DNA of 62,415 nt, counting the filler, from Rhabdomonas costata (taxonomy: Eukaryota), in assembly GCA_019059605.1 (NCBI GenBank). It is 30 parts of 30 records of this genome, joined end to end, with 100 filler letters (N's around TTAATTAATTAA, not from the genome) between each part and the next. Parts side by side here need not be neighbours in the genome. Positions count along the whole stretch, not along the records: positions 25,013 to 26,995 come from JAHMHO010006731.1; positions 27,096 to 29,078 come from JAHMHO010006732.1; 28 more parts are not named here. One strand, 5' to 3'. Below are positions 2,431 to 30,252 of the stretch, piece after piece; the stretch's first letter is position 1; each line of letters begins with the position of its first letter. Position numbers and translations under genes: made by a program. Under the pieces are notes generated by a model. That model ran no database searches, was not told the origin of the DNA, and saw only the letters and a list, made by a program, of their open reading frames with translations.

Positions 2431-5400
2431 TACTCCCGCCGTTGAGGGAAGTGCCTTGTCACAAAAACGTAGACAAAAGCCAAGCACAACTTCAACAGGT
2501 CGACAACCAAACGACGCCTTGTGCACGTTGTGTGTGTCTGCTTCTCCATATCTGCGCCTGACTCCAGTCAGGGCGCACAGAAACCGCGAGTGCATTCCTT
2601 GCAAGTTGTGCACTGACTTTTTCCTTTCTGTGATTTTCATTGGTCTTTTCCCGCGGAAAGGACTAGAACAGAGTGTGCGCCTCGGGTCTACATGGCAGTT
2701 TGCTGCATTGCAGGTCTTGAATCGCAGCTGGGTGAAGCGTTGTTGCTGCCAACTGACAAATGAGCTGGATGTCCAAGAAGAATTCTTGTGCTGGATTTCG
2801 GTTTAGGTCCGCCAGGATCGCCATTTTCCCCTCTGATGATTTGTAAAAGCAAAGAAAGTTTGTATTTGTATGCTCGGTTCTCTATTTCGTCCCAGGTCGC
2901 TCCCCGTATCCCCGACCAGCCCGCCCAAGGCAGCAAGCAAGGCAGTTCACTTTTCCGAGCCTGAAGTGCAGCAGCAGCAACAGCAGCAGCAGCGCTCCAT
3001 AGCAGTCTCATTGTAAACATCTCATACGCATTTATACATACATGCACACACGAACGCACGAACGCACGTACTCACTTGTACACTGAGAGAGACTCACTCA
3101 CTTACTAGAGTCAAACAGATGTACACGTATACAAATCGCGTACGTACTCTGCACTCACTGCACGCGAACCCTGACACATGGAGCCCACCGCGGCACATCA
3201 GTTCCCCCTCCCACGCCCTGTCTCCAAATTGCAAGCTCCCTCTAAAGCATGAGGTCTCTCTCCTTCTCTTTCCCTTTTCTTTTTTTCACTGAAGCACTGC
3301 CACCGCTTTGCCCTCCTTCTGTACAAAGCCCAGAGTGACGGTGATTCTCCAAAGTCCCCTCCCCTCCCCATTTCCATCCAAACATCCTCCCGTCACAATA
3401 CCTTCACCTCCCGCCCCCTTGTGGATGCGGAGGTCCTGCCTGATGCCTATATACCCCTTTCCCGTGCCTACCTCTTGACTGTTCGTCCTTCCTCGAATAA
3501 ATTGGGTGCTTTTTTCGCATTGTGGCGTTCCCTGTGTCTTCACGTGTTGTGCTGGTAACGGTCGGGGAACAACAGCGCCACCGCCCTTGCAAAAGCTGTC
3601 TCTCCTTCTTGCGCACCCTGTCCCGAAGCTTCTTTACGCTCAGTGCTCGGCAGGCAATACCAGGCCCCACCTCGTTGGAAAGGAGGGGTCGTGGTAAGTT
3701 CTGCTCTTCCTTGCTGTGTACTAAAGTGCCAGTGTGTTCAGGGGCTCAGGCGGTTCCCTCCCATTCCCGCATTTTCTTTTCTCCTCATGCTATGCTCGGT
3801 TTGGCAAGAAAGCCCCCCCCCCATGCTTGAAGTCATATGAAGCTCGTGCTTTCCTTCCTGTGTACTAAGATGCAATTGATATGCCTTGTCCGGAGCCCTA
3901 CTTTCCCGAAACTGTGCTTCCCATCTTTCGGATGGGTCGTTCTGGGCCATCTTGCCCAGCTCCCTCTCGCTGCTGCTGCTGTTGCTGCGTCGTGCTGCCT
4001 TGCCTTCCCTTCCCTGCACAACGTTGTTGCAGTTTTGTGGGATCTCTCTTTGTTGGGGCCCCTTTTCCCNNNNNNNNNNNNNNNNNNNNNNNNNNNNNNN
4101 NNNNNNNNNNNNNTTAATTAATTAANNNNNNNNNNNNNNNNNNNNNNNNNNNNNNNNNNNNNNNNNNNNGGGGGGGGGTGGTGGTTCCTGGTGCGCTTGA
4201 CCTTGGTCTTCCTTGGTCTCCTCAAGCTTCAGCTTTCCTTCCGCCAAGGGCCACGGAGCGTTTCGAGCCCCCCTGTGTGCGTAAATTACGAAAAGACTCC
4301 GGGCCTGCTTCGGCTTTGCCCTCATATATCCGCTTACCTTTCCCTTTCCTGCTGCACTCTGTGCACTTCTGTCAGCTGCAAGTTTCTTGCCAGAATTTCA
4401 TTATTCAAATCAAATTGGCCAGTTTATCCGAACTCGGTTGGGCGTGCCCCCCTGCCGGTGGGCCAATAGGGCCTGTTTCGCGTGCTGGTGTGTGGCCGCA
4501 ACAGAACCAAATTGGAGAGGACCATGTGCACGTGATCATGGCGGACACCGGGTACAGTGACATGAAGGCGATGGACTCGCGAGGCAAGGCTGTTTCCGCG
4601 GTCACGCTTTGCGGAAAGGGCACCTTCGTAGAAGGACTGCTTGAAGTATGTGTGTATGCTGGCCAAGTGCTCAAAGTGTGTTTGCATCCTGAACGATTCA
4701 ACGAGACACACGGGTTCTTCCATCACGAATGTGGTATGCATCGCCTCTGGATGGAGTTTCTGGATGGTCTCGATTTGGTTTTTGGGATTTCAATAGGGAG
4801 TCACTGAAAAAACTGTGGTTTCGCGAGCATGCTTACACTTTCCTCACCGCGTCCAGTTCACTTTGTACTTTCTCCTGCGCGCGTGTCCTCCCCGCCTCAA
4901 TTACCCGAGCGACGAACGCCGGACCCCCTCGGCAGCTATGCTGTGATGCTGTGACCGTTGCTCCTACACCTTCCCGCGAAACGGAAATCTCCGATAGAAA
5001 CGTATGGTTTATACCAAAAAAGTATTCATTCATTGAATGCGCAGGTATTCTGGTTTTTTTGTGTGCGGTTATCAAGGTGCAATCTTTGCTTCCGATGATG
5101 TTGTGGACCCTATAACGGTGTTCCGATTCCCGTCATACCCTCTGGCTAGAAGCGGCGCACGCATTGTAGATGAGGCACCAAAGCGAAAGTGCACCAGCGC
5201 CAGGCAGTTGTTTCCCAAACTTTGGCCGCAGGCGTGATGATGGTTGTGACGCCCCCAGCTTTCAAATGGAAATCTCAGACCAAATCTCACCCCTAATGTC
5301 GCGCCCCCCCTCCCCCTGCCAGCCTCCTTTGCTTCCCAATGCTATGTCCATTCCCCTCTTATTTCTGTCTGCCTCATCTTCTTTTGTGCGGCAGTTCCAT

Positions 5401-5577
5401 GTGGAGGACCGCTGGACATTCATTGGCCTTGTGTTGACTGATAGTACAGTTTTGTTTGAAAATGGAAGGCAGGGGTTTGCCCTTTAGCTTTGTTGGTCAA
5501 CAGTCATACAAGAGTTGGTTGCGAGGGCGCGCATCTTTGGCTATCTTCCCCACACACATGCCGTTGTGGCCGGGCAG

Positions 5578-5730
5578 GCGGATGACCCCTCCGTTACGGT
5601 AATTGAGGCCCTGCAGCAGGAGATCGTCGCGCTGAAATCGGCCCACGAGTCCCGGGTCGCGGGGCTGCAGTGGCAGCTCCGCTCCAAGCAGATGATGCTG
5701 GACATGATGCGCGACCGCCTCACAGCCGAG
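5578..5730 (+). CDS. Isolated exon of a coiled-coil protein
   Basis: GC-rich 153-nt exon (ADDPSVTVIEALQQEIVALKSAHESRVAGLQWQLRSKQMMLDMMRDRLTAE) after a CAG acceptor. It ends GAG|GC before a pyrimidine-rich stretch. Confidence 0.6.
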
Positions 5731-6396
5731 GCACCCTCCCTTCCCTTCCTCCTGCGTCTTCGTTTTGATTCCTGTCGGTTTCTCGATTGCTCTCTTTTTC
5801 TGTGGTGATTCTCGTTCGTCTCACTCAAGTCACTCAAGCGCATGCGCGCACGAGGCCAAACACAAAGAAAACGTGTTCAACAAAAACAAAGGTGCACATG
5901 ACAACGATGTAGCCCTGTCCTGTGCGGTCGTTTTCTGTCACCACACACAAGGTCCACACACAACAACGGTACAAGACGGAGGTCGCTCTTTCCCTGCCCA
6001 CCTTCCAACTCCTTCTCAAAGGCGGGACTCAGGTTCTCTCTCGCTCGCTCGCCCGCTCGTTCTCTTTGCAGTTCCTTCTTGCGACTCCCAAAGACCGATT
6101 CTCTTCCGAACTCCTTAATTCATTAACACCCCCACAACCACACACACCCACCACNNNNNNNNNNNNNNNNNNNNNNNNNNNNNNNNNNNNNNNNNNNNTT
6201 AATTAATTAANNNNNNNNNNNNNNNNNNNNNNNNNNNNNNNNNNNNNNNNNNNNGGTGGGGGGGTGGTCATCCATCATGATTTTATGGAACCCATCTCGC
6301 ATCGCTTTTATGAACGGGTTTCCAAGAAGCGAAAGAAAGCTACCGCTAAGGAAGAGAGCCCAAAAAAAGAGAAAGTGTGAGCCCCAGTAACCAAAC

Positions 6397-7945
6397 CTTT
6401 AACGAACAGCCCAAGCTGCCCGTCGTACTCGAAACCCTCAAGGCCTGCGTATGGTGCGCAGCTTTGCCGGTGCTGCTGGACAAAGGCCTGCAAAACTGAG
6501 TACCAAAGTTGAAATGCAGAGGAAGAGAACGAACTGATACAGGGATGTAATACAGGAGGAGGAGAGAGAAAGGACGACGGTCAACACCGCCCAGCAGGCG
6601 CCCCTCCCCCCTGAAAATGTTCGGGGTCCGTTTGCAGTATGAGCAAACCATATTTTCACACAACCCACTGCGTTCAATGCCTGTCACACAGGCACACACA
6701 CACACACACACACACACACTCGCCTCACACACACACTTGAGTGATGTCCACAGGCAGGGAGACCCTGACACTCCCCTCGAAGTTCAGCCAGTGCAGCATG
6801 CAAGGAGAGCCACGCAGAAATGGGACCAGGTTTATTCCAGCAGTGCACTCTGAGCTGTCGCAACCCACGAGAGGAAACTCCACGCATGGAAATCAAAGGC
6901 AAGGGCACAGCTTCACAACAACCGAATCAGCAAAGAGCAACCCAAAAACGCAATGGAGGGAAGGAGTATGGTTGTGTTGAGTATAGTTGCCCCTCCAAAA
7001 CACACGCTCGCAATTCGAAGTCGACACACTTCTCCCAGGGCAGGGCAAGGCAAAACAAGGCACTGCCTCCAACCTGAAGTACAACTTTGTCCTTCAGCTC
7101 GTCGAGTTTCGTGTGAGCTGCAGAGGAAAAAGGGCCGGATTCCTGGTAAAGTTCTTTCATGTGCCAGCACTCCGACCAAAACCACCCCAGCAAACTCATC
7201 ATCAACGAGAGGACAAAAAGTTCATGGGAATGCTCGCACAAACGGGTGCTAGCTTGCGACAGTTCCTCACACACCAACCCCCCTCGCTTTGAGACATCCA
7301 AATAGAAAAAGGAGCCGACCTCTATACAGGATGCGCCCGGTGTGTGACAGTTGACTCATTATGGCATCATTTGCGTGAGAGCTGCGAGGCACAAGAAGGC
7401 TTGCAAGGGACCAAACAGTGCGAGGTATACCTGGAGATGACATTGAACCACCGAATACGAATGCGGCAACCCTGTGGATGAGCACCACCTCCGGGACAAA
7501 CTGAAAGGAAAGGTGCCAAAAGAGGGAAGAAGAGGGCTACGCCGAAGCAGGCCTGGGGTCTTTTGTACATACAACAGGCCTCCCGAAGCGTCTGAAAGGG
7601 AAAAGACACGATTGTGCCGTGCGGTGCGGAAGTAAAAATGATGCGTTACAGGGAAAGAGGCTGCGAAGCTGTAAATTTGTCCTTGTTGCCTCAAAAGGAA
7701 GTAACACACAAGTTGGGTGGTGCAAAAACTCGATTGTATACGCAGACCGGTCTTGCTCCGATTATGGAAAGGGACCGGGACGTTCTTCTCTTAGCATCTT
7801 CTACTGAGGTGAACAAGGAATTACAAACATCGCCAAGCCCCGTCCACCGGCTTCCGTACCTTAGTTGGGGGAAGCCGCTGGTGAACGTGGTGCGCAATGA
7901 TGCAGCCCGCAGGATGAAGCGGGAGGACCTGCAGAAATGGCGTAC
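6397..7945 (-). CDS. Multi-exon protein fragment of unknown function
   Basis: Exon-like blocks with AG/GT borders, e.g. ...TKLDELKDKVVLQ| and AFVQQHRQSCAPYAGLEGFEYDGQLGLFVK|. No family recognised and boundaries are approximate. Confidence 0.35.
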
Positions 7946-26550: not shown

Positions 26551-27096
26551 GTACGCAGGAGAGTCTCCCCTTGCGTCTTCTCTCTCAGCGAAAACCCGAA
26601 ATATTCCGCATCACCTCAAAAATCGACAACCGAAACAATTGCACTCTAAATCAGGCATTTTCCCACTTGAAGCAAAGGGAGGGGAGGGGGGATGATAAAC
26701 TGGATATTGCCTTGCGGTGGTATTGCTATTTTCGACCTGTTTGTTGTGTGCCTATCCCTACCTCGTACTTTTGAGATGACGTAGGCCCTATTTTTTTTTC
26801 GTAGCTGGCGGCGCCATTTCATCTCATGCAGCCATGCTCACCCTTTCCTGTCCATTCCTGTTCAACGCATCCTGATGGTGGTTTTTCCTTTGCACTGACA
26901 AGGAGGGTAGAGGCGATACTCCGAAATTCAGAAGGAAATTCACCCCGCCCCGGAGATGCATCATTATCGGATTGCATTATTACCCCCCCCACACCNNNNN
27001 NNNNNNNNNNNNNNNNNNNNNNNNNNNNNNNNNNNNNNNTTAATTAATTAANNNNNNNNNNNNNNNNNNNNNNNNNNNNNNNNNNNNNNNNNNNNA

Positions 27097-27219
27097 AAGC
27101 AAAAAACATATAGATTTCGTTTGAAAGTCCCAAATGAAGCAATGTATGAGTATAGAATTAAACCATTTGAGGATGGGGTGAAGGCAGTTATTGGCATACC
27201 ATTTTACCAAATATATTAA
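27097..27219 (+). CDS. 3' end of a small hypothetical protein on the AT-rich contig
   Basis: Open frame from the contig edge: KQKTYRFRLKVPNEAMYEYRIKPFEDGVKAVIGIPFYQIY*. Confidence 0.65.
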   Translation, partial: KQKTYRFRLKVPNEAMYEYRIKPFEDGVKAVIGIPFYQIY

Positions 27220-27251
27220 TTTCGTACGTAAAATTTTATTTCGATTTTAAA

Positions 27252-27274
27252 AAAATTATGTCTATTAATTATAA
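27252..27274 (+). promoter_or_regulatory. Candidate promoter AAAATTAT...TCTA upstream of ORF 27275
   Basis: AAAATTAT ends 15 nt before the ATG. The same octamer lies at 27796-27803 and 28999-29006, before the other two start codons. Confidence 0.5.
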
Positions 27275-27745
27275 ATGTTAAGAAGAACTGATAAAGTTAA
27301 GCTCGTAAAGATAATACAAAAAATGTTAACAAAACCAACACAGAAAAAAAACAAAATTAAAAGCGGTGGTATGATGATAGATCATGATTATTTTTCGTAC
27401 ACTGAAGATACAGTTATTGATAAAGCAAAACGTTTATTCACAAAATATATAACACATCCAAATGACATATACACAGTTTTTACATGTTATAATCTTAGCG
27501 CTGGTGGTAATAGAGTGTACGAACAATATACTTATATTGGTAGAAAATTTTTGAATAATGATTTTTCTGAATTCCCACCTAATTTTACAGTGATTGGTAT
27601 TGCTCATAAGGGTCATTTAATCTTCAACCAAGGCATGCCCTACCGTTGGGAAGAATTTAAATACCGCCAAGTAGGGCAAGAAATGCCCACAAGATCATTG
27701 AAAGATATTGTTGGCAATTATGTAAACTATGCTGGTTTACGTTAA
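27275..27745 (+). CDS. Hypothetical protein (156 aa), basic N-terminus, intronless
   Basis: Long ORF in very AT-rich DNA, with an upstream motif shared with its neighbours. No family recognised. Confidence 0.8.
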   Translation: MLRRTDKVKLVKIIQKMLTKPTQKKNKIKSGGMMIDHDYFSYTEDTVIDKAKRLFTKYITHPNDIYTVFTCYNLSAGGNRVYEQYTYIGRKFLNNDFSEFPPNFTVIGIAHKGHLIFNQGMPYRWEEFKYRQVGQEMPTRSLKDIVGNYVNYAGLR

Positions 27746-27795
27746 ACTAGTTTATATAATGATGTTGCCGTAATACAGTTATACTATCTCTTAAT

Positions 27796-27820
27796 AAAAT
27801 TATCTTATCTATTTATAAGA
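27796..27820 (+). promoter_or_regulatory. Candidate promoter AAAATTAT...TCTA upstream of the protease
   Basis: AAAATTAT at 27796-27803, TCTA at 27808-27811, ATG at 27821. Confidence 0.5.
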
Positions 27821-28552
27821 ATGACTTCGGAATTTCCATATAAATTAGGGTTGAAACGTGATAAAAAAGACGATAGAGACATTAAGTTACACGTTCCAAT
27901 GAATAAAGTACTACCTGAAAAATATGAGATCATACCACGTGCTATATACAACCAACAAAATATCGGATCCTGCTCTTCTCACGCTATCGCCAATCAAATA
28001 ATGGCATTAAAAGATTATTCAGATAATGATTACCCATCAAGACTATATCAATATTGGAATTCTAGATATTTAGAAGGAAATCAGAATTCAGATTCTGGAT
28101 GTAGTTTTCGAGACGCATATAAAGCAGTCTCGAACTGGGGTTTTTGTGATGAGAAATTATGGGATTATGATACAAGTAAAATATATGATCGTCCACCTGA
28201 TGAATGTTATGAAAAGGCAAATAAAACATTAATTAAAAGATATCAATCATTATATCAATCTTCATATGCCATTATGTATGCTATCTCAGAAAACAAAGTA
28301 GTTACGTTCGGTACTTTGATACACCAGAATTTTAATGATTTAGATGAGAACTTTATTGTTCCTCTTCCAAAAGGAGACGTGTTAGGTGGGCATGCTCTAC
28401 TGATTTCTGGATTCGATGCATCTAAAAAGTTATTTACAGTGGTTAACTCGTGGGGTAATAAATGGGGAAATAATGGTTTGTGTTATATGAGATTTGAGCA
28501 TGTTAAAAATTCTGACTGGTGTTTCGATTTTTGGACAATTGATAAAGAATGA
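27821..28552 (+). CDS. Papain-like cysteine peptidase (C1A, xylellain-like), 243 aa
   Basis: Oxyanion Gln and catalytic Cys in QQNIGSCSSHA, His in GGHALLISGFD, Asn in VNSWGNKWGNNG. It also has PSRLYQYWN and an N-terminal RDxxDxRD, with no signal peptide or long I29 prodomain. Confidence 0.95.
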   Translation: MTSEFPYKLGLKRDKKDDRDIKLHVPMNKVLPEKYEIIPRAIYNQQNIGSCSSHAIANQIMALKDYSDNDYPSRLYQYWNSRYLEGNQNSDSGCSFRDAYKAVSNWGFCDEKLWDYDTSKIYDRPPDECYEKANKTLIKRYQSLYQSSYAIMYAISENKVVTFGTLIHQNFNDLDENFIVPLPKGDVLGGHALLISGFDASKKLFTVVNSWGNKWGNNGLCYMRFEHVKNSDWCFDFWTIDKE

Positions 28553-28732
28553 AAGAACAATTTATTTTTATGCTCTATCATCATCTCTATTGTCATCTAT
28601 TTTCGGAGATCTATTTTTGTTTGCATTTTTAATAATTGAAATCATTGTTAATTTAAAAAAACCATGTGAACCAGCTGTAAGCTGTAAGCACTTAAATATT
28701 CAATCCTTAAAATGATATTACGAGTTGAATAT

Positions 28733-28969
28733 TTAATAATCAATTTTCATTACGTTTTCAAATATTTTCGTTTCATTTGCGTCTAAATAGTCGTTTTTGT
28801 AGGAAAGCATAAGTATTTCTAGACAATCTCTACTACAATATGTATAGGGTTGATTACATAATTTGTAATTGTAGCATTTTTTTCCGCATATTTCACAGCA
28901 TAAATACTCTACTGGTGTTATTTTTAATTCTTTTTTGCTATTTAATTCTGAAAATTTACGTTTCTTCAT
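28733..28969 (-). CDS. Small Cys-rich putative zinc-finger protein (78 aa)
   Basis: CEICGK...YCSRDC (CxxC...CSxxC, treble-clef-like) and a basic N-terminal KKRK. Confidence 0.7.
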   Translation of the reverse strand: MKKRKFSELNSKKELKITPVEYLCCEICGKKCYNYKLCNQPYTYCSRDCLEILMLSYKNDYLDANETKIFENVMKIDY

Positions 28970-29078
28970 ATATCTTAGGATTCTATAATATTATTCATAA
29001 AATTATAGAATCCTAAGATATATGAAGAAACGTAAATTTTCAGAATTAAATAGCAAAAAAGAATTAAAAATAACACCA
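28913..29078. repeat. Perfect 77-bp inverted repeat with 12-nt loop at contig end
   Basis: Arms 28913-28989 and 29002-29078 are reverse complements; the loop is ATTATTCATAAA. Confidence 0.95.
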
Positions 29079-30252
29079 NNNNNNNNNNNNNNNNNNNNNN
29101 NNNNNNNNNNNNNNNNNNNNNNTTAATTAATTAANNNNNNNNNNNNNNNNNNNNNNNNNNNNNNNNNNNNNNNNNNNNGGTTGGGGTTTAGAAACAAAAG
29201 GTCTGAATTCACGATCCCCAGACTCCTTCATCGGACGGAACACGCACACAGACCTTTTGTTTCTAAACCCCTTTTTGCGTGTGTACACGTGTGTACACAA
29301 ATACTGAGCACTCCCGCAGAAATCAAACATATCAAGCAGACCGGTGTTTAATCAATGGTTGAATCAAGAGATCCGTTTTTAATCAAGTATGCTTCCTCTC
29401 CTCCACCGTCAGCGCATTGTGCAAAGCGGGTGTGTGTTTGTTTGTGGAAAAAAGGACAAGACCTGTCACTAGAAGGAGACGCAGCCCGGTAACCCTCCCC
29501 AAATAGACTGGGAACCACCCAGGACACAAACCAGCATCGCATCCCAACCACCAAACTTTGTCTTGAAAGGTATTCCAAATACCTTTTAAGTAGTTATTGC
29601 GTTATCTGGGACACCTGGCAGGTGAAATAGGCAAATGAAAGCAGATCCGTTCTTATTCAGATAGTTAAGTCATGAGGATGTTAACATATCCGTGCTACAT
29701 ACTATAATTGGTGTTTGGGTTTGGAAGATTGAACAAGATCCGTTCTTAATCAAAATGGCTTGCTGTAACACTCCAGCCCGCCAGGCTTTTTTACATTGTG
29801 CTCGTCCTGTGCTTTGGTTGGTCTTCCTTGTGCGTTTTGGTTTCTGTATTTTTTCCCGGTGTGTCCACGCACACATTCTCAACCCGCAACCTACCCTGTC
29901 CACTCAGCGCTGCTGTACTCCCTGTCAAGCTACCCCCCAGCCTTTCCTTCCTTGTTTCCCTCTTGTGGTGGCTTCCTTGTGTGCATCCGAGACATTGTCC
30001 TGATTCCCTTTCTTGTCCTTTCGTGTCGTTTGCTTCCGCTGAAGATACCTGGCACCTGCTTCCCCTTTCACTCATTTGCAAAAACACAATGCGCTGGACC
30101 CCTTTCACTGTCGGGTGTTGTTTGCCGAAGAACGTTGGGAATCGCAACAACGCGAACGAGAAAATTCAGCATTTTCTAAGCCAAGCAAGGAGTGCACACA
30201 CGCAGGCAGCCGCAAAGTTGCTGCAAAGTTCACAGTAGCATTCCTCCTTCAG

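Follow-up and report, generated by a model that had tools for sequence, protein, structure and literature searches.

One of the 30 contigs in the stretch of Rhabdomonas costata DNA analysed here (62,415 nucleotides from assembly GCA_019059605.1, hereafter the window) is likely to be foreign and virus-like. This contig, JAHMHO010006732.1, carries a gene for a papain-type cysteine protease, with the end of a small-domain gene upstream and a convergent zinc-finger gene downstream (Table 1). The interpretation favoured here, tentatively and with slightly less than even confidence, is that it represents a piece of an uncultured AT-rich double-stranded DNA virus which was assembled together with the eukaryote without being part of its genome, and most likely of a tailed virus of the HK97 type (Caudoviricetes-like). 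Its few informative genes suggest a tailed, phage-like virus more than a giant virus.

A compositionally foreign contig in the window

The window joins contigs of 1980-2002 bp by spacers of 44 N, TTAATTAATTAA and a further 44 N. The contigs (1-62415, ~1983 bp each) appear to be ordered by length, and anything that crosses an N/TTAATTAATTAA spacer is artificial. Compared across these 30 contigs of the window, and not across the whole assembly, the guanine-plus-cytosine (GC) content was 0.291 at 27096-29078 against a mean of 0.525 in the 29 others (standard deviation 0.024, range 0.460-0.581; z = -9.9). The coding fraction of the contig was 79%, or 82% without the terminal duplicate, and its intergenic spacers measured 55, 75 and 180 nt. 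These values bear out a preliminary description of the contig as an AT-rich outlier with four intronless, tightly packed open reading frames (ORFs). Since relatives were found elsewhere for all three complete ORFs, these are considered to be genes and not chance frames.

The same description proposed a giant-virus, virophage or Polinton-like element, co-amplified with the protist or endogenised in it. A viral origin is retained because of the viral-looking gene content, whereas the assignment to those particular groups is not upheld by the hallmark genes, an upstream motif, the protease tree or the family of the small domain, all discussed below. No evidence of endogenisation was found on the contig, which has no host-like flank. 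As for the other contigs, two of ten long frames taken from them had Pfam matches, namely LRR_8 and CCDC113/CCDC96 (30.3 bits, under the cut-off of 31.6), a weak hint at a ciliated eukaryote as their source. An Rfam scan of the window gave no match.

Table 1. Features of the foreign contig, in coordinates of the window
Feature	Position	Strand	Remarks
Foreign contig	27096..29078 (1983 bp)		29.1% GC; N/TTAATTAATTAA spacers at both ends
Small-domain gene, 3' end (40 codons + stop; full length ~76 codons)	27097..27219	+	5'-cut by contig end
ORF156, 156 amino acids (aa), with basic N-terminal patch and conserved C-terminal block of ~60 aa	27275..27745	+	Conserved, rare
Predicted xylellain-type C1A (papain family) cysteine protease, 243 aa	27821..28552	+	Pfam PF00112, phrog_16701, 3ois_A
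Imperfect AT-rich palindrome, 22-nt arms, 82% complementary	28692..28736		Overlaps stop of zinc-finger gene
Cys-rich protein, 78 aa (FCS-like zinc ribbon)	28733..28969	-	Convergent with protease gene
Terminal fold-back	28913..29078		Arms 28913-28994 and 28997-29078, 82 nt, 1 mismatch

The protease and its relatives

The identification of the central gene as one for a xylellain-like, papain-type protease, already given in the preliminary description, was well supported. Its product matched Peptidase_C1 (PF00112) over residues 41-225, scoring 41.5 bits where 20.7 is the cut-off (E 2e-10), and the 'peptidase' family PHROG 16701 (1.6e-17). The only solved relative at E <= 1e-5 was 3ois_A (7.7e-32), an entry whose xylellain structure paper is cited in an excerpt of PMC10380794, and a profile built from the clade described below gave 3ois_A at 9.1e-43, followed by a cathepsin B-like structure at 4.6e-9. 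Gln45, Cys51, His191 and Asn209 were invariant both in a 23-sequence alignment and in a 22-sequence alignment of the clade. If their roles are assumed to be those known from papain, these residues would be the oxyanion-hole Gln, the catalytic Cys and His and the orienting Asn. The active site of the C1A protease is, as far as sequence can tell, complete, and the product would be an active thiol endopeptidase. About 40 residues precede Gln45, with no signal-like extension, and they include a stretch conserved in the alignments (KLGLKR..D.RD.KL) ahead of the catalytic core; relatives are 238-252 aa long. This conserved N-terminal extension (~26-40 residues) may form a short internal lid. Both TAA and TGA terminate the protease gene at aligned C-termini, and a ciliate code was rejected on this ground.

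With the known short C1A peptidases of the xylellain type (PDB 3OIS) the enzyme shares the papain fold family, the length of ~240 aa, the four conserved residues and the lack of an I29-type propeptide, for which Pfam gave no match in the protease. It differs from them in that its clade forms a long separate branch (stem 0.58 substitutions per site), with at most 39% identity to any record outside the clade. It differs also in its setting, as the gene here adjoins a stand-alone gene for a head-associated domain, an arrangement of which a limited literature search found no published description.

In a 43-row maximum-likelihood tree of the proteases the lineage of the contig formed one clade (support 100/99), and this clade was found within a set of 15 rows (95/89) together with L039, L042, L051 and L100. 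L051 comes from a record of 65 kb, a genome that has direct terminal repeats and matches Terminase_6N. All six rows from giant-virus metagenome-assembled genomes (MAGs) or from a 1,259,197-bp viral record were placed outside the 15-row set, separated from the clade by the 95/89 branch, which argues against an origin in a eukaryotic virus. An earlier quick tree of 123 rows left this level unresolved.

The genomic context of the protease gene was scanned for 150 of the 176 ORFs lying within 3 kb of it, in 23 of 25 IMG/VR loci hand-picked from 80; the ORFs of L050 (13) and L061 (11) were left out in full, together with a single ORF from L032 and another from L064. Wherever neighbours in the 23 loci found a match, they were tailed-phage genes: five loci had head or packaging genes, three had lysis genes and at least seven had homing endonucleases. 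The protease gene of L033 stands between terminase and portal, and in L011 the C1A gene also lies among head and packaging genes (terminase, portal, scaffold). Whole-record searches for Phage_portal and Terminase_6N missed both L011 and L033, in which PHROGs show portal and terminase, and such searches must therefore be regarded as insensitive. Within the lineage, a gene next to that of the L091 protease encodes a product sharing 41% identity with a protein from jumbo phage XaC1. The same neighbour is found beside the protease gene of L109, a T4-like record of 130 kb and 29% GC which also carries ThyX, a class II ribonucleotide reductase and SegE. Among GenBank phages the best match to the protease was an uncultured 595-kb phage, at 35.6% identity. 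Best matches in ordinary phages, which the preliminary description had named as speaking against its proposal, were found in part; the closest relatives of all are short environmental contigs and no known phage.

A small domain of head-assembly proteins

In L088 a counterpart of the truncated gene at the left end of the contig is complete, with an ORF of 76 aa whose end shares 53% identity with the product encoded on the contig. A beta-alpha-beta-beta-beta fold is predicted for the domain, with a predicted local distance difference test (pLDDT) score of 91.4. The 76-aa form of L088 matched 16 IMG/VR loci, where the domain occurs inside larger proteins. Twelve of these larger proteins were scanned with Pfam, giving Phage_portal in two (one of them with Mu_F), Peptidase_S78 in three and S78_2/XkdF in three; of the other four, three were without any family and one had only a DUF6582 match below the cut-off. 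The contig of L141 has phage capsid and S78 genes in addition. The small-domain family may accordingly be counted as a Caudoviricetes-type trait, being otherwise found in phage head-assembly proteins, with a structural match in an iridovirus (see below) as a caveat. Phage proteins were also among the structural matches of the model, one being a 460-aa protein from Pseudomonas phage SM1. A Foldseek search of the PDB with the model returned nothing at E <= 0.001, and the best VIA-align score was Z 4.1, several subtilisin-prodomain rows at Z 3.3-4.1 being not significant.

Considered on its own, the 70-aa beta-alpha-beta-beta-beta domain (L141/L148, 2279-4579, plus 15 further IMG/VR loci) lacks both a Pfam model and a structural relative that has been solved. 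Common to portal-MuF and prohead-protease proteins, it looks like an undescribed domain of the phage head module.

The arrangement on the contig recalls the prohead protease modules (S78, S78_2/XkdF, portal-MuF), as the domain that is fused in those modules lies here just upstream of the protease gene. It departs from them in several respects: the protease is a papain-type cysteine enzyme and not an S78-type serine protease, the domain is encoded by a separate gene and not as part of a fusion, and capsid, portal and terminase were not seen in the contig's lineage. By analogy with the fusions, the small domain might recruit the protease to the assembling head or act as its partner there. The small-domain gene, ORF156 and the protease gene would then constitute a particle-associated module, with the zinc-ribbon protein encoded convergently.

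Gene order in the lineage and a possible cellular origin

Protease relatives at 46-72% identity were all found on contigs of no more than 2267 nt, with cluster members of up to 2619 nt. Twelve protease loci with 41-71% identity came from a metagenome scan, their contigs measuring 1026-1938 nt, and a genome scan yielded a single locus, L134 (62% identity), on an 1800-nt contig in a MAG labelled Francisellaceae; the GC content was 26-35% in all 13 contigs. The linkage of small-domain gene, protease gene and zinc-finger gene is conserved in this lineage. The small-domain gene lies directly before the protease gene in L084 and L134, and one unrelated small ORF separates the two in the window, L088 and L089; the zinc-finger gene is downstream of the protease gene and convergent with it in L086, L090 and L098. 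The other neighbours vary among the contigs, and the genes of close contigs encode 59-243 aa. Frame shifts that break the protease gene of L091 (84-800) and the zinc-finger gene of L090 (580-880) may be low-coverage sequencing errors or may mark decaying copies.

GIY-YIG homing endonuclease genes follow the protease gene in L098 (395-820) and L134 (906-1625), so that in some relatives they separate it from the zinc-finger gene, and none is present on the window contig. Presence and absence of this kind between relatives is a polymorphism typical of mobile endonucleases, and GIY-YIG genes beside the protease gene are found in phage relatives as well, for example L008. Almost no match was obtained for the neighbouring ORFs of the lineage with Pfam, PHROGs or NCBIfam, and neither the GIY-YIG protein of L134 nor the L091 neighbour protein had a match in IMG/VR.

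The occurrence of L134 in a MAG raises the question of whether the contig is cellular DNA of an AT-rich bacterium or archaeon (prey, symbiont or contaminant), a prophage remnant or genomic island included. Bacterial MAGs and plasmids do contain annotated C1 peptidases of the same type (27-35% identity), and the neighbours of the zinc-finger protein in the Atlas are small bacterial proteins. Such an origin is nevertheless considered improbable. The MAG contig is only 1800 bp long, with the protease gene, a homing endonuclease gene and the small-domain gene, and its label is doubtful because the GC content of the MAG's other contigs, which carry long ORFs (30.5-32.3%), would draw an AT-rich contig in composition-based binning. 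Among 41 genomes of the MAG's order, a strong match to the protease was found on the L134 contig only, with one 36-bit partial match in another genome, and the MAG has no homologue of the zinc-finger protein. No NCBIfam family was found for any of nine lineage proteins. As to signals of bacterial expression, Shine-Dalgarno (SD) motifs were not found (see below), and the contig has 13 sigma-70-like sites and 1 intrinsic terminator where chance would give 12.7 and 0.6, respectively. A gene order that changes among contigs, orphan genes and a mobile endonuclease are, by comparison, usual for viruses.

Expression signals

In keeping with the preliminary description, GGAG or GAGG was absent at -20 to -4 of the three starts on the contig, and it was absent too from all 24 genes of the lineage. 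The 30 nt ahead of each lineage ATG had 3-30% GC. The palindrome at 28692-28736 has a predicted fold of -9.6 kcal/mol on the plus strand (z -3.5) and -9.9 kcal/mol on the minus strand (z -2.3), and is a candidate 3'-end signal for both convergent genes. The genes thus appear to be expressed without SD-guided initiation, with AT-rich hairpins marking their 3' ends, and these two features together would make the host a eukaryote or else a cell in which the SD motif is not relied upon.

Evidence for and against a eukaryotic virus

A number of observations weigh against a tailed phage as the source of the contig. Relaxed SD-like 4-mers were found ahead of 1 of the 24 lineage genes compared with 14 of 34 genes in AT-rich phage relatives (L109 7/14, L014 7/20; Fisher p = 0.0018). 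Of 11 protease genes, four have a perfect AT-only hairpin of 12-15 bp that starts no more than 2 nt from the stop codon, the corresponding frequencies being 3% in random windows and 0% in shuffles; the window contig itself has an imperfect hairpin only, at the stop of the zinc-finger gene. The model of the small domain has a structural match in a stand-alone 97-aa protein of Armadillidium vulgare iridescent virus (E 3.9e-5, template-modelling score 0.78). According to an excerpt of PMC10380794, Mimiviridae on the one hand and myo- and siphoviruses on the other each acquired short bacterial C1A peptidases of the xylellain type independently. In the GenBank phage collection no match was found for the 76-aa protein, the contig DNA, ORF156 or the zinc-finger protein, and PHROG matches in the lineage were limited to the protease and to two of the 16 ORFs neighbouring it. 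Genes for terminase, portal or an HK97 capsid are absent from the contig and from 13 close contigs, all of which are too short for such absence to count. Finally, the proposal that the protease acts in or on the virus particle together with the small domain is inferred from gene order and from the phage fusions.

Some of these traits would fit a virus of eukaryotes, that is an AT-rich nucleocytoplasmic large DNA virus (NCLDV; mimivirus- or iridovirus-like), a virophage or a Polinton-like element, with the protist, or some other eukaryote that was sampled with it, as the host. Such a source is regarded as possible but rather unlikely. Hairpin-forming palindromes at transcript ends are a trait of Mimiviridae and Pithovirus, and AT hairpins such as those at the protease stop codons are described in part of PMC4402537 as the polyadenylation signal of Mimiviridae. 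The same source gives Mimiviridae more than 70% AT, and Table 1 in the extract of PMC5923455 gives the genus Iridovirus 29-32% GC, compared with 29% GC in the contig. The latter source also lists a cathepsin among the virion proteins of invertebrate iridescent virus 6 (IIV-6). Protease relatives are found at 34-38% identity in six records named giant-virus MAGs and at 29% in the 1,259,197-bp viral record. The KKRK-like starts of the zinc-finger homologues might be read as nuclear-import signals, the absence of GGAG/GAGG is as would be expected, and the apparently non-bacterial nature of the assembly's other contigs is a weak hint in the same direction. That all relatives lie on short contigs would likewise be expected of a large genome at low coverage.

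The contig's lineage resembles the AT-rich giant viruses (Mimiviridae and invertebrate iridoviruses) in AT richness, in dense intronless genes on two strands, in orphan genes, in gene-end hairpins at 4 of 11 protease genes, in C1A proteases and in the predicted, iridovirus-like fold of the small domain. It differs from them in that no hallmark gene (double-jelly-roll capsid, A32 ATPase, PolB, D5 or VLTF3) was found in the four ORFs or in 16 neighbouring ORFs, on contigs of less than 2 kb. It differs further in that the early motif of Mimiviridae, AAAATTGA, is missing from the 100-nt upstream regions of all 24 lineage genes, and in that the giant-virus rows do not form the sister group of the protease clade. 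The genes of giant viruses are usually much longer than those of the contig's lineage, whose shortness is a further argument against this origin. The NCLDV capsid family PF04451 was found in none of 37 IMG/VR records with protease relatives, nor in the Francisellaceae-labelled MAG. This is weak evidence, because there was no match anywhere to serve as a positive control and because eight queried records, including all six giant-virus MAG records, were outside the search.

As regards the smaller elements, the protease of virophages and Polintons is of the adenain type and not C1A, so that the C1A enzyme of the contig speaks against them on general expectation. The capsid, ATPase, polymerase and integrase that the preliminary description recommended searching for were not found on the contig. 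Virophage and Polinton genes (capsid pair, packaging ATPase, integrase and protein-primed polymerase) are likewise missing from it, an absence that cannot count on so short a contig. A 5'-cut ORF upstream of the small-domain gene in L088 (3-305) has a spacing of residues like that of adenain/Ulp1 proteases (His-Trp ... Asp ... Gln ... Cys-Gly). It gave only sub-threshold Pfam scores (Josephin 0.0071, UCH 0.034) and no match in the PDB, and was not accepted as evidence; such a protease, if real, would favour a eukaryotic-virus origin.

The fold-back at the right end

The last 77 nt of the contig repeat 28913-28989 exactly in reverse complement, the two copies being joined by a turn of 12 nt, a feature absent from the preliminary description. 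The 2-nt centre of the fold-back lies 26 nt upstream of the ATG of the zinc-finger gene, and such an end is present in only 1 of the 30 contigs of the window. A length of 77 is a common (largest) k-mer of short-read assemblers, and in a de Bruijn-graph assembler reads that fold back produce a contig end with an exact inverted copy one k-mer long, whatever the cause. The fold-back therefore shows only that some reads turn back at this point, and is probably an artefact of amplification or of de Bruijn-graph assembly.

The exact inverted copy, a near-palindrome that reaches to within 2 nt of its centre, and its restriction to a single contig could also suggest contamination from a reagent or another sample, affecting the contig in whole or in part, or else the covalently closed hairpin end of a linear viral genome. 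This is thought very unlikely. The length of the exact arm coincides with a common assembler k-mer. In L086 and L090 a further gene lies upstream of the zinc-finger gene, so that there is no genome end at that point in those contigs. Related sequences that have diverged by 28-59% occur in many independent metagenomes, as would be expected of a natural lineage rather than of a single reagent contaminant.

Other genes and features

ORF156 has no Pfam, PHROG or NCBIfam family. A search of 1.84 billion cluster representatives found two relatives, whose contigs measure 806-1789 nt; P0046 is a full-length relative with 51% identity, and these would make ORF156 a real but very rare gene. Other searches for it were negative, with none of 69 candidates retained in a word-based homologue search, no usable match in the Atlas and none of 101 pattern matches confirmed in an alignment scan of IMG/VR. 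Its AlphaFold model (pLDDT 46) was unusable.

The zinc-finger protein has five conserved Cys residues (CxxC ... C ... YCSxDC) and an N-terminal KKRK motif, and its homologues in L086, L090 and L098 are 46-48% identical. As a lead only, it may be akin to the FCS-type zinc ribbons, its neighbours in the Atlas being small zinc-ribbon clusters. None of 88 pattern matches to it in IMG/VR was confirmed.

A further frame at 28494-28715 (plus strand), with a TTG start, overlaps the end of the protease gene; no relative was found in loci L001-L133 and it is probably not a gene. In the contig that follows in the window (50% GC), a perfect 23-nt inverted repeat, GGGGTTTAGAAACAAAAGGTCTG and its complement, was noted at 29183-29271. 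Its arms lie 43 nt apart and start 4 nt from the contig end; a small hairpin element is one possible explanation, the end of a transposon another. The metagenome contig of L110, with 24% GC and a distant relative of the protease, carries at 4014-6934 a gene for a LlaMI-type restriction endonuclease, adjoined by a C5 cytosine methylase gene with an intein-like insert and an N-terminal C2H2 finger.

Implications

The contig needs to be marked as non-host DNA and excluded from the gene set of the protist. Its lineage recurs across many environmental data sets and has never been assembled past about 2.7 kb. A more far-reaching interpretation would be an unrecognised lineage of AT-rich viruses with an HK97-type head module and eukaryotic or archaeal hosts, with genes that lack SD motifs and terminate in AT hairpins, in which a C1A protease, partnered by the separately encoded small domain, would have taken the place of the serine maturation protease and the fold-back could be a true hairpin end. 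This is a speculative proposal and hardly a probable one. As it stands, the contig is an ordinary co-assembled fragment of a virus carrying a xylellain-type protease, both of known kinds.

Two points, if confirmed, would merit a specialist's interest. A papain-type protease would occupy the place where tailed phages keep their serine prohead protease. The small domain, confidently folded in the model (pLDDT 91) and with no solved relative, would be one that is common to phage head proteins and an iridovirus protein.

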